IMG/VR virus record: IMGVR_UViG_2660238548_000022
DNA from: a virus
Lineage: Duplodnaviria > Heunggongvirae > Uroviricota > Caudoviricetes
Strand: one strand, 5' to 3'
DNA: 8,402 bases
A program made the position numbers. How positions within the stretch are numbered: position 1 is the first letter of the stretch; each line of letters begins with the position of its first letter. Of the stretch, positions 1 through 3,000 are shown one piece after another.

Positions 1-3000
1 ATGAGCAGGGCAATTCATAGACTTAGCGACACTCTTTTACGAAAATTAAGCGGATCACCAACCACAAAAAACACCTTTTTTAATGATGGTGGCAACCTTA
101 GCGTAAGGCATTCAACCAATGGCCTGTTAACCTGGTATTTCACTTACAGGACCGGAACAGGCAGGAAGGTAGCCCCTGAACGTCTGAGGCTGGGCAATTA
201 TCCCGATCTGAGCCTGAAAGCTGCCAGGGAAAAAGCGGCACAGTGTCGCGCCTGGCTGGCTGAGGGGAAAAATCCGCGCTATGAACTTAATCATGCTGTA
301 CAGGACGCGTTAGCCCCAGTGACGGTTAAGGAAGCGCTCACTTACTGGCTTGAATCGTACGCAAAGGAAAAGCGCACTGACTACGAATCACTGAAAAGCC
401 GGATCAATAAACACATAATTAGCCAGATTGGAGCTATGCCACTGGAAAAATGCGAGCTACGCCACTGGCTGGCCTGTTTTGACCAGCTTGCTAAGCGTAA
501 TCCGGTATCAGCCGGATTTTTGCTACAGGTATGCAAACAGGCGCTTAAGTACTGCCGAAAACGACGATACGCAATCAGCAACGTTCTTGATGATATGGTT
601 GTCGGTGATGTTGGGAAAAAAGCAGAAATAAGCGAGCGCGTACTAACAAACAAGGAGCTTGGGGAATTACTACGCGCCCTTGATGAAAAAATTTACCCAC
701 CGTACTACAGCGCCCTGATTCGCCTCCTGATTGTCTTCGGATGTCGTACCACTGAGCTAAGACGCTCTGAGGTCCAGGAATGGGATTTTAAAGAAATGCT
801 CTGGACCGTGCCGAAAGAACACAGCAAAACGAAGGTAGCAATATTCAGGCCAATACCGGAAGCGATCTTGCCGTTTGTCATGAAGCTGGTGGAGCAGAAC
901 AGGCACACGGGCTTATTGCTCGGAGAACTGAAAGGGCAATCATCCGTATCAGAGTACGGAAGAACGGCACACAGACGCATTAATCAAGCCCCCTGGACGT
1001 TGCACGACATCCGGCACACGTTTACAACGATGCTGAACGATTTAGGCGTGGAACCGCACGTTGTGGAGCAGCTTACCGCGCACCAGTTGCCAGGAATGCA
1101 ACGAGTCTATAATCACTCCCGTTATCTTGATGCAAAACGTGACGCTCTTAATCTATGGGTTGAGCGCCTCGATGTGCTGGCTGGAAATCATGAAAATATT
1201 GTTATGCTGAAGGTGGCCAAATGAAATTACCTAAAAGACTCTATTATCCATTACCTGAAGCGGCAGAAAAGTTAGGCTGTGCAATAAAAGATCTTTATCA
1301 TTACGCATATATAGGCGCTCTTAATATTTCTGTATATATACCAAAAATTGATGCTAAAAAATTCAATTTTTCATTATGTCATTTTATCAATGGTTGTAAT
1401 GAGGAAGAATTAATAAAATATCCTTTCAATGATGAATCTGCTGTTTTTGGAAGTAATTTTACAGTTGGTTTAACTGGTGACACTGAATTTTTAGATAGTG
1501 CCATTATTGGTCCTGTAGGGAATCCTATCAAATGTTATTATGTTAGCAGCTTATCAGGGTTTTATTATACTCCGGCGTATGTTTTTGCTGATGTCGAATT
1601 TAGCATGAGACAATATATAAAATGTTCTCATCTTACGAATAAGTATGGTGATGATAATCTCATGTATGTTTTTTGTAAGGGTGGTTATGAATTTGATGTT
1701 GACTATTTGTGTGTGATGGCTAGTGATTTAGATAATATAAAAAATACGGGAGACTTCCCGAAGATAACAGAAGATAGCCCAAAAGCATCGTCAAAAAGGA
1801 ATGAGGTTATTTACTCTTTAATTAAACTTATTCCAGAAATGGGTGATGTAGACCTGGACACGGAATCATTACCTAAAATAGCAGATTTAATTGATTCTAT
1901 AGCTGCATCCAGAGGGATAGAATTTCCAAAAACACATTGGCAGACATGGCAAAAGTATTTGGGGCGTGAATCTCAACAAAAACGTAAAAAGTGATATCAC
2001 GTGCTGGTAGTGTGATATCACACAAACGGCGTTTTACTACCGCCTAGAATCGTCCTCGTTCGGCAACGTTCGAGGACGTTTTTTTATGAATCAAAATACA
2101 CAATTTCAATCACTATCAGATCGCGTAATCCGTGAGGATGAATGCCGTAAGTTAACAGGAGTGTGCCGCACTACACGCTACGAACTGGAGAAAAAAGGGC
2201 GCTTTCCGTCACGTCTTAATCTGGGCGGTCGTTCTGTAGGGTGGCTGCTGTCCGAGGTTATGGAATGGGTTAAAAGCCGGGATCGCATTAATTCAGGTAA
2301 GGCAGCGTAGGGGGAACATATGACACATAAAACAAAGGCGACCTGTGGCGGTCGCCAATGGGAAAACACTAAACATAAGCCAGAACATCATAGCGATTTG
2401 CTGTCTGGTGGGCAATGTGCTCAGTGTGCTGGCTTGCTGGTGGGCTATTCCTGCTCTTTGGCCTTGCGGCGCTGGCGGCGTTTGATTTCGCCTTTAACGG
2501 CAGTAACTATAAATTGCGCTTTGCTTTCACCTTCATCTAAATTTTTTTCTAAGTCTGCAACAACATCATGCGGGAATCTGGCATTTAACTGTTGCGACTT
2601 ATTATTTGTTGAACCTGTTGCCATTACTGAATCCTCTCTAAGTTGGTGCGATTCAGTATACACAAAAAAAATTCAGAGAAAAGGCTTGAAGTGCGATTCA
2701 CTTGCTGATAGGTTAAAAACAGATGGTGCGATGCACCAAATGACAACGCCCCGCAGTGGTGGCACACATGCAGGGCGTCTAACAACCAACGATAGCAACA
2801 GTATCGAGGTAGCTATGTTAAATCATACCACACACCCGCAAGGGCGGGACTCGCACAACCTGAATAAATACATCTGGCGTTTTATCGCCCTGAGCACGGC
2901 ACAGCCGCGCGTGATTACCATCGAGGCCACCAGCGAACAGGAAGCACGCCAGCAATCCCCAGTTGGCTGCGTGATGGTATTCGCGGCCCGTATTCGTCAG

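Follow-up and report, generated by a model that had tools for sequence, protein, structure and literature searches.

What controls the activator gene alpA of a phage satellite, and what part in that control might be played by an AT-rich gene without annotation that stands directly in front of it? The question is raised by an 8,402-nucleotide stretch of a virus assigned to the Caudoviricetes (IMG/VR record IMGVR_UViG_2660238548_000022; the whole stretch is called the window here). The window is a phage-satellite island whose genes run mainly in one direction, with the integrase gene int first and a capsid-like gene last. In Gram-negative phage-inducible chromosomal islands (PICIs), AlpA is the autoregulated, helper-induced master activator, and a given island responds to certain phages only (PMC6092414; 10.1101/2022.09.08.507074; PMC11773190); no repressor is known, and the route by which the helper reaches alpA is undescribed (PMC6092414; 10.1101/2022.09.08.507074). 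In the window, an open reading frame (ORF) of 257 codons plus stop (1221-1994, plus strand) lies between int (1-1224, plus strand) and alpA (2086-2310, plus strand). A first-pass annotation, made from the sequence alone, had taken this ORF for a separately acquired cargo gene. We propose instead, as a reading that is plausible rather than probable, that the ORF encodes a modular DNA-binding protein and that this protein, two palindromes and a terminator-like hairpin make up an alternative cassette controlling alpA. Since no repressor is known and helper induction is specific but unexplained, such a cassette would fit a gap in the control of Gram-negative PICIs.

Exchange of the ORF together with the alpA upstream region

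The window was compared by blastn with five sister islands that occupy the same cspD-clpS site but do not have the ORF (L030, L031, L010, L011 and L041). Homology extended over positions 1-1203 (91-97%) and resumed at position 2118 with up to 94.7%, the body of alpA being the same allele. The block that is swapped (1204-2117, plus strand) contains the tail of int, the ORF, the two palindromes, the hairpin and the first 32 nt (11 codons) of alpA, and it corresponds to 463 bp of mostly noncoding DNA in the sisters. Since this cassette replaces the whole upstream region of alpA and leaves the body of alpA unchanged, the control signals of alpA must lie within it. The ORF-less islands have short repeats of their own right after the int stop codon, AATATCG in two to three copies (L010/L011 5240-5340) and ACAAYGTG in three copies (L012/L013 5230-5330), which may be the regulatory counterparts in the empty spacer.

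The interval between int and alpA had been regarded as a slot for variable cargo, and this did not hold. Of 73 IMG/VR islands with an integrase 70-99% identical to that of the window, 71 had an empty spacer of 284-421 nt and 2 held a member of the ORF family; no other gene was found in the slot. EcCIMP1_002, which lies between int and alpA in another PICI, is a small ORF and not related. In these satellites the variable zone is found after alpA (Rha, AntA/ANT and T5orf172 genes), in agreement with the four-zone satellite scheme of PMC10111431. The order int, ORF (overlapping int by 4 or 8 bp), 54-95 bp of spacer and alpA was present in about 20 divergent lineages from E. coli (five alleles), Salmonella, Klebsiella (two types), Enterobacter, Pantoea, Yersinia, Hafnia, Providencia and metagenomic contigs, and the upstream neighbor of every family member with visible DNA was a P4-type integrase of 406-408 amino acids. 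This order was kept at the attachment (att) sites cspD-clpS, rcnR/rcnB, acrR-type tetR, yhdJ, doxX, a GGDEF gene and an MCP gene, across replication modules with D5 primase, DUF927 or a RepA-type helicase, and across the packaging modules of classical PICIs and of HK97-type capsid-forming PICIs.

Exchange is also seen within the ORF. Between ORF-bearing alleles, DNA homology breaks off at 1205-1342 and returns at 1695-1821, and at the rcnR site three different central domains stand ahead of one identical AlpA. Alleles at the rcnR site include WP_000775338, WP_264801448 and WP_047662512. Judging from these alignments, the middle of the ORF is exchanged as a mosaic between alleles. A middle that is swapped between constant ends, in several alleles that share one att site and the same alpA, is at the level of sequence the pattern of a recognition domain, and the hypervariable middle hints at a variable ligand.

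Paired palindromes that covary with the protein

Two copies of the 10-bp palindrome GTGATATCAC follow the ORF, the first (1991-2000) overlapping its stop codon and the second (2012-2021) 21 bp further on, start to start, with an 11-nt spacer between them. Even with one mismatch allowed, the window and 32 kb of L001 contained only these two sites, against 0.19 expected. A palindrome pair at 20 to 22 bp, start to start, follows the family member in every lineage, while the spacer and the rest of the intergenic region vary, with at least six spacers among the family-bearing IMG/VR satellites. CRP and lambda operators, considered as identities of GTGATATCAC, were dropped, the half-site geometry being different. 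The palindromes are also distinct from the arm-type doublets of the integrase (GGTGTAGTnAnT) and from the TTGTTCG repeats with a 10-bp period described below.

The type of palindrome went together with one residue of the protein. At the position of Q241 (nt 1941-1943), where the last conserved helix begins, five residues ahead of its conserved aromatic, GTGAWWTCAC went with Q or N, GYAATATTRC with V and GGAAWWTTCC with K in 16 tabulated lineages. Two further loci (L146 and L163) fit this pairing, and three predictions that had been written down before the look-up all came true. The palindromes do not track AlpA: L005 and L016 share the att site, the integrase and a nearly identical helix-turn-helix (HTH) of AlpA, but their ORFs and palindromes differ. 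Nor do they track the N-terminal recognition helix of the ORF protein, which is nearly alike in L020 and L024 with different palindromes. These comparisons suggest that the palindrome type tracks the C-terminal domain, with Q241 as a candidate specificity residue.

A scan with the DNA motif alone led back to the family. Three of four loci in enterobacterial genomes adjoin a family member and alpA, as do 8 of 11 loci with an 11-nt gap in viral contigs, and L128, found by the motif alone, has a type-B-like C-terminal domain with Q and a GTGATATCAC pair. Among the exceptions are L118 and L185, which are taken up below, and L176, a further motif locus without an assigned family member and alpA. 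The match in L181 is due to chance and lies inside a structural gene. Most of the motif matches in viral contigs are accounted for by an unrelated phage lineage of about 55 kb that carries TGATATCA arrays. It comprises 42 viral contigs, L174 (4500-4600) and 41 similar metagenomic IMG/VR contigs, in which a gap of 12 nt separates the palindromes and six to seven TGATATCA motifs share one intergenic region; these contigs were set aside.

A conserved hairpin at the start of alpA

Between the palindromes and alpA lies a hairpin (2051-2085, plus strand) with the arms CGTCCTCG and CGAGGACG (2051-2058 and 2071-2078), followed by seven T residues (2079-2085). Its 3' arm contains the Shine-Dalgarno sequence of alpA (GAGGA, 2072-2076), the start codon of alpA follows immediately downstream, and the loop holds two GTTCG repeats (2058-2062 and 2068-2072). 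The calculated free energy was -19 to -24 kcal/mol (z score, -3.0 to -3.9). In an alignment of 13 lineages, 88% of the cells were paired versus about 40% in slid-column controls, and 8 of 10 pairs had a compensatory change; none of 500 shuffles reached the observed value. The hairpin was not found in the ORF-less sister islands. It may serve both to terminate transcription of int and the ORF and to mask translation of alpA.

Directly 5' of the hairpin, a hexamer of the form nAnAAT or nAnnAT is present in all lineages. In the window it is the -10-like TAGAAT (2045-2050, plus strand), 23 nt after the second palindrome, which could equally be a -10 element or an A-tract pairing with the T run. 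If TAGAAT is a -10 element, the palindromes would be centered near -40 and -61, and transcription of alpA would begin within the 5' arm of the hairpin, so that the transcripts would escape it.

Other repeats are present on these islands. In every lineage, whether or not the ORF is present, the region upstream of int contains TTGTTCG repeats with a period of 10 bp and then a tandem GGTGTAGTnAnT doublet (L001 11912-11984; the 130 nt upstream of int in L002-L028). They recur near attR (L001 21141-21213), and GTTCG/CGAAC repeats also lie upstream of alpA in ORF-less islands. The GGTGTAGTnAnT doublet resembles the "doubled motif" of PMC10111431. The TTGTTCG repeats are probably sites of AlpA or arm sites of Int, and we read them as AlpA sites.

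A protein of three regions

AlphaFold 2, run with an alignment of 101 sequences, gave a model of the ORF protein with a pLDDT of 86.4 and a pTM of 0.71. The model has a strand-helix-helix-wing unit (residues 8-54), a beta-rich domain that ends near residue 175, then a linker of low confidence and four helices within residues 187-256. The N terminus had been described as loosely resembling the HTH of AlpA or an excisionase, and an excisionase-type fold was in fact found, the best structural matches including Pukovnik Xis, RdfS and an AlpA-family excisionase. The winged HTH (about residues 6-55; 1236-1385, plus strand) has the family-wide conserved motif RLYYPLxEAAxxLGCxxxDxxH and is the most conserved part of the protein across the family; as modeled, it is a DNA-binding winged helix of the Xis/MerR type. 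The resemblance did not extend to homology with AlpA (PF05930, PF12728), since hhalign gave a probability of 0.1% against the AlpA alignment. With 257 amino acids and three regions, the protein also differs from the single-domain AlpA proteins and excisionases of about 50 to 80 amino acids, and it does not have the MerR build of a winged helix, a long antiparallel coiled-coil dimerization helix and a C-terminal effector pocket.

The central domain (about residues 45-175; 1353-1745, plus strand) is hypervariable and rich in beta strands, with a conserved scaffold of G113, F114, E126 and L163. It is only 19-32% identical to that of the window in all other lineages, whereas the termini reach 80-96%. 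No structural neighbor of this domain was found in PDB or BFVD. The C-terminal domain (residues 187-257; 1779-1991, plus strand) is helical, with modeled helices at 187-203, 217-230, 240-246 and 250-256 and a pLDDT above 90. These last 70 or so residues are up to 94-96% identical between proteins that are only 41% identical overall, and they come in two homologous types, A and B (hhalign, 97.4%). Searched as a profile against PDB and Pfam, the C-terminal domain matched no known DNA-binding family and no HTH family. Its seemingly strong matches to designer pentatricopeptide proteins were rejected as an artifact of the pattern helix-KG(I/V)xP-xxT, being sums of about nine repeats, each with an E value above 70.

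The excisionase-like matches and the high conservation of the N-terminal domain, together with the conserved overlap of 4 to 8 bp with int and the translational coupling that it implies, are what would be expected of an integrase cofactor or atypical recombination directionality factor, whose Xis-like N terminus would bend DNA or contact Int and so bias integration versus excision. This role, which had been offered as an alternative to a defense function, is improbable: the att site is some 2 kb away from the palindromes, and the sister islands manage without the gene.

Base composition and coupling to int

The ORF was confirmed to be AT rich, with a G+C content of 32.7% versus 48.0% (standard deviation, 3.3) in the rest of the window and a G+C content at third codon positions of 0.22 versus 0.51 in int. 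Translational coupling to int, as noted before, is also borne out: the ATG of the ORF overlaps the int stop codon (ATGA), and a Shine-Dalgarno sequence read from the sequence (AAGGTGG, 1209-1215, plus strand) lies inside int, whose last codons contain the ribosome-binding site of the ORF. The AGGTG at this junction was kept in seven lineages. The low G+C content had been taken to indicate separate acquisition. An accessory insertion is indeed evident from the replacement of block 1204-2117 relative to the ORF-less sisters, but low G+C content is not simply a sign of recent foreign origin, because the family as a whole has it, whatever the host (0.29-0.39, versus 0.39-0.55 for the neighboring genes).

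Very low G+C content would also be a feature of a decaying or functionless insertion silenced by H-NS, and truncated or frameshifted fragments are present among the database matches (P0072, P0074, P0089 and P0120). Nevertheless, we consider a dead insertion very improbable. The family retains its frame, length, three-domain layout and motifs at 30-40% identity across genera, the structure is predicted with confidence and the associated noncoding elements are conserved.

A family found so far only in satellites

The gene had been called undescribed, and this was upheld. No paper was found on accession WP_000775337, and in the papers that could be searched, the gene, its family, the order int-X-alpA and the palindrome-hairpin cassette are not described. 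The protein of the window had no match in Pfam (E values up to 0.1), NCBIfam or the sequences of PDB; in PHROGs the sole match, a weak one, was to phrog_13283, whose function is not known (E value, 0.021). A Pfam scan of 101 relatives yielded nothing usable, two of them touching HTH_17 weakly (best E value, 1e-3). Members were recovered as 20 clusters by a word-indexed search and as 37 by a profile search, in which all named members were hypothetical proteins from Enterobacterales. An exhaustive hidden Markov model search of 1.84 billion representatives gave about 424 clusters (50% identity) at an E value of ≤1e-3 and 53 at ≤1e-30. A pattern search in contigs of one genome per species gave no confirmed match, the gene being too rare in representative genomes. 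A remote relative (E value, 4e-15) precedes an HTH_17 gene in a satellite with GPO_N and Ogr_Delta genes and also has a palindrome pair. In Providencia rettgeri GCA_001680125.1, the same family allele is present on two contigs (L008 and L009), each with alpA and similar flanks, which suggests a duplicated locus or a duplicated flanking region.

The distribution bears on the function that had been favored for the ORF, that of a single-gene antiphage or helper-interference protein. Such a protein, of the abortive-infection type, would sense a phage product with its variable domain and block phage or host functions, and the palindromes would be self-regulatory or unrelated. The gene is accessory: among 5,426 complete E. 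coli genomes, 1,134 have the integrase lineage, 47 have the ORF allele of the window and 84 have any relative at the DNA level, and only 2 of the 73 related islands carry it. Strong AT-richness, a hypervariable domain with swapped alleles and an expected expression with int in the quiescent state, like that of prophage and satellite defense genes, point the same way, and PICIs are known to carry immune systems (cited in PMC10085698). On the other hand, the 5,027 models of PADLOC-DB v2.0.0 gave a single weak match, to the small HTH protein mad1 (E value, 0.015), which covers residues 8-34 and is thus the HTH. The annotation had seen no catalytic motif, and no enzymatic, pore-forming or nucleotide-binding domain shows in either sequence or model. 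Defense genes usually roam between types of elements, but tblastn searches with the family gave no match in 50,697 phage records and 72,556 plasmid records; the slot is never occupied by another system; and a portable defense gene needs neither the invariant synteny nor the overlap with int nor the linkage to alpA. Because there is no effector, a single syntenic position, a tie to palindromes in front of alpA and no occurrence in phages or plasmids, a regulator fits better than portable defense. We consider the defense function unlikely, but it remains a live rival.

A model for the control of alpA

If the ORF, the palindromes and the hairpin form an alpA control cassette, they might work as follows. 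In the quiescent island, the ORF protein would be made together with the integrase through translational coupling. Probably as dimers, it would occupy the paired palindromes through its C-terminal helical domain; given the model as a whole, this binding is rather likely. The target sites start at the stop codon of the ORF itself, 65-95 nt upstream of the alpA start codon, and their occupancy would set whether alpA is expressed, by repression or by activation. The hairpin would end transcripts of int and the ORF and, in read-through RNA, would hide the ribosome-binding site of alpA, which would insulate alpA. The hypervariable central domain would be the input, most likely recognizing a product of the helper phage, and a swap of this domain would change what induces the satellite. 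The anatomy, the gene order, the limits of the cassette, the conserved palindromes and hairpin and the covariation of protein and palindrome are observed; the DNA binding, the sign of the regulation and the nature of the signal are inferred.

In its strongest form, which is possible but doubtful, the model makes the family the missing gatekeeper that senses helper phages in a subset of Gram-negative PICIs and capsid-forming PICIs: a two-headed DNA-binding protein without known regulator relatives that would hold alpA off or poise it via the palindromes, with a central domain that decides which phage induces, so that satellites could retarget to other helpers by swapping a segment.

Several observations weigh against a control cassette. 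The palindromes abut the region coding for the C-terminal domain, and this physical linkage, together with shared ancestry, confounds the covariation and could yield much of it. Operators 3' of the regulator's own gene and codirectional with the target are unusual. A consensus scan of 1995-2085 found no alpA promoter, and TAGAAT may be part of the terminator stem. About 97% of the sister islands do without the gene, and the basic PICI cycle does not need it. AT-richness and a hypervariable domain are also typical of defense genes. Finally, in Trabulsiella guamensis (L118, 1952-2899), a GTGATATCAC pair stands behind an ORF6N/P22_AR_C antirepressor gene, its 11-nt spacer being GGAGCATGATG, and neither a family member nor int or alpA lies close by. 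The sites could thus be read by a different protein, and GTGATATCAC may be an operator shared with a phage-type regulatory circuit. L185 has a palindrome pair with the same spacer GGAGCATGATG.

The operator pair beside the phage-type antirepressor gene in L118 also speaks for a satellite immunity or exclusion factor, which would act in trans as a repressor. It would bind the palindromes of related satellites that are incoming or coresident, or those of a phage that has this operator, and silence their alpA. The immunity groups would then be GTGATATCAC, GYAATATTRC and GGAAWWTTCC, in line with the small number of discrete operator classes across genera, each with a matching protein class, and the presence of the same allele twice in one Providencia genome counts for it as well. 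It would leave the hypervariable middle domain unexplained, however, and nothing points to competition between satellites mattering here. We regard it as quite unlikely, and as a variant of the control-cassette model rather than a separate one, since the DNA-binding step is the same and the two largely overlap.

The island and its other genes

The arrangement of the window agrees with that of Gram-negative PICIs and capsid-forming PICIs, which we defined by the codirectional order int, alpA, primase-replicase and packaging gene, a length of about 8-15 kb, att repeats and the absence of lysis and tail genes: int, alpA, DUF4222, a primase, terS, a capsid-like gene and att-like repeats were all found. 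The integrase is a P4-type tyrosine integrase of 407 amino acids (Pfam Arm-DNA-bind_3 and Phage_integrase), and AlpA has 74 amino acids (Pfam Phage_AlpA; E value, 2e-16). In E. coli 13E0780, an island 98.5% identical to the window lies between cspD/yljB and clpS. Two 21-nt att-like direct repeats (ATAGATGATAGTTATTTATCA and ATAAATGATAGTTATCTATCA; L001 11813-11833 and 21274-21294), 9,461 bp apart, bracket the island and are likely the att core.

Downstream of alpA, the RefSeq record has a ylcI/ynfO-like gene (2445-2624, minus strand) and an icd-like gene (2815-3018), where a mechanical list of ORFs gives an ORF of 232 codons (2320-3018, plus strand) that is probably no real gene. Small ORFs and DUF4222 precede a D5-type primase gene (D5_N/DUF5906; 3922-5670). 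Just 3' of it, iteron-like repeats occupy 5677-5905, with TGGGTAGAGGGGCA in three copies, its complement AAAGCCCTCTACC in three copies and an inverted pair at 5809-5869; this is the position expected for a PICI replication origin. The terS gene (phrog_641) lies downstream of the primase gene and before the capsid-like gene. Clusters of AAAGTTAC repeats in both orientations (6781-6807 and 6983-7064) are found within and upstream of terS, where they read in frame as a KKVT repeat of the small terminase; they could be the packaging (pac) site. The capsid-like gene (7479-8402), annotated as major capsid protein, ends with its stop codon exactly at the end of the window. Its product of 307 amino acids matches only the C-terminal third (positions 386-610 of 626) of the profiles of phage major head proteins, and the island has neither a portal nor a protease gene. 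The protein may be a capsid-size or interference factor rather than the product of a complete capsid gene. Rfam matched no family in the window.

Comparison with known systems

The ORF protein differs from AlpA, Vis, Xis and MerR winged-helix proteins (PF05930, PF12728) in having 257 amino acids and two additional domains, as opposed to a single domain of 50 to 80 amino acids, and it does not have the long dimerization helix of MerR. With the proteins of the same satellites that are built from exchangeable domains, it shares the modular build, and a palindrome pair also follows the ORF6N/P22_AR_C gene of L118; however, Bro-N, ORF6N, KilA-N, Rha and ANT domains were not detected in it, and its gene sits in the integration zone before alpA and not in the variable zone after it. 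Like the genes of P4-like defense hot spots and of PICI-borne immune systems, the ORF is an accessory, AT-rich, polymorphic gene beside the integrase gene of a satellite, but its slot is binary, either empty or filled by one family, and the protein matches no known defense protein. If the ORF is a defense gene after all, it would represent a new type without an effector. Either way, an unannotated protein family and two domains without a structural neighbor have been defined.

The closest parallel is the Stl/Rpr master repressors of Staphylococcus aureus pathogenicity islands (SaPIs) and Gram-positive PICIs, which are likewise encoded on the satellite beside the integrase gene and combine an HTH part with a highly divergent part (PMC6092414). 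In Stl/Rpr, the divergent part recognizes a protein of the helper phage and gates induction, and different alleles give helper specificity (PMC6092414). The ORF protein is unrelated to Stl by homology and is wired differently: stl is transcribed divergently, whereas the ORF is codirectional with alpA and has its putative operators downstream, which adds to the points against a control cassette. The paired palindromes in front of alpA, which covary with the ORF protein in the lineages compared, are its candidate operators.

If the model is correct, Gram-negative satellites would have independently evolved an exchangeable sensing module like that of Stl, and there would be a way to predict or reengineer which phage mobilizes islands in Shiga toxin-producing E. 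coli, Klebsiella and Salmonella. As a handle on the helper induction of Gram-negative PICIs, the locus is compact, with a single gene, a pair of 10-bp sites, a hairpin and a single residue that is a candidate for specificity, and the natural series of alleles at a single att site makes swap experiments possible. Stl of SaPIs is a known example of a mobile-element regulator that joins DNA binding to a variable sensing part; the gene, its family, the order int-X-alpA and the palindrome-hairpin cassette had no description in the papers that could be searched.

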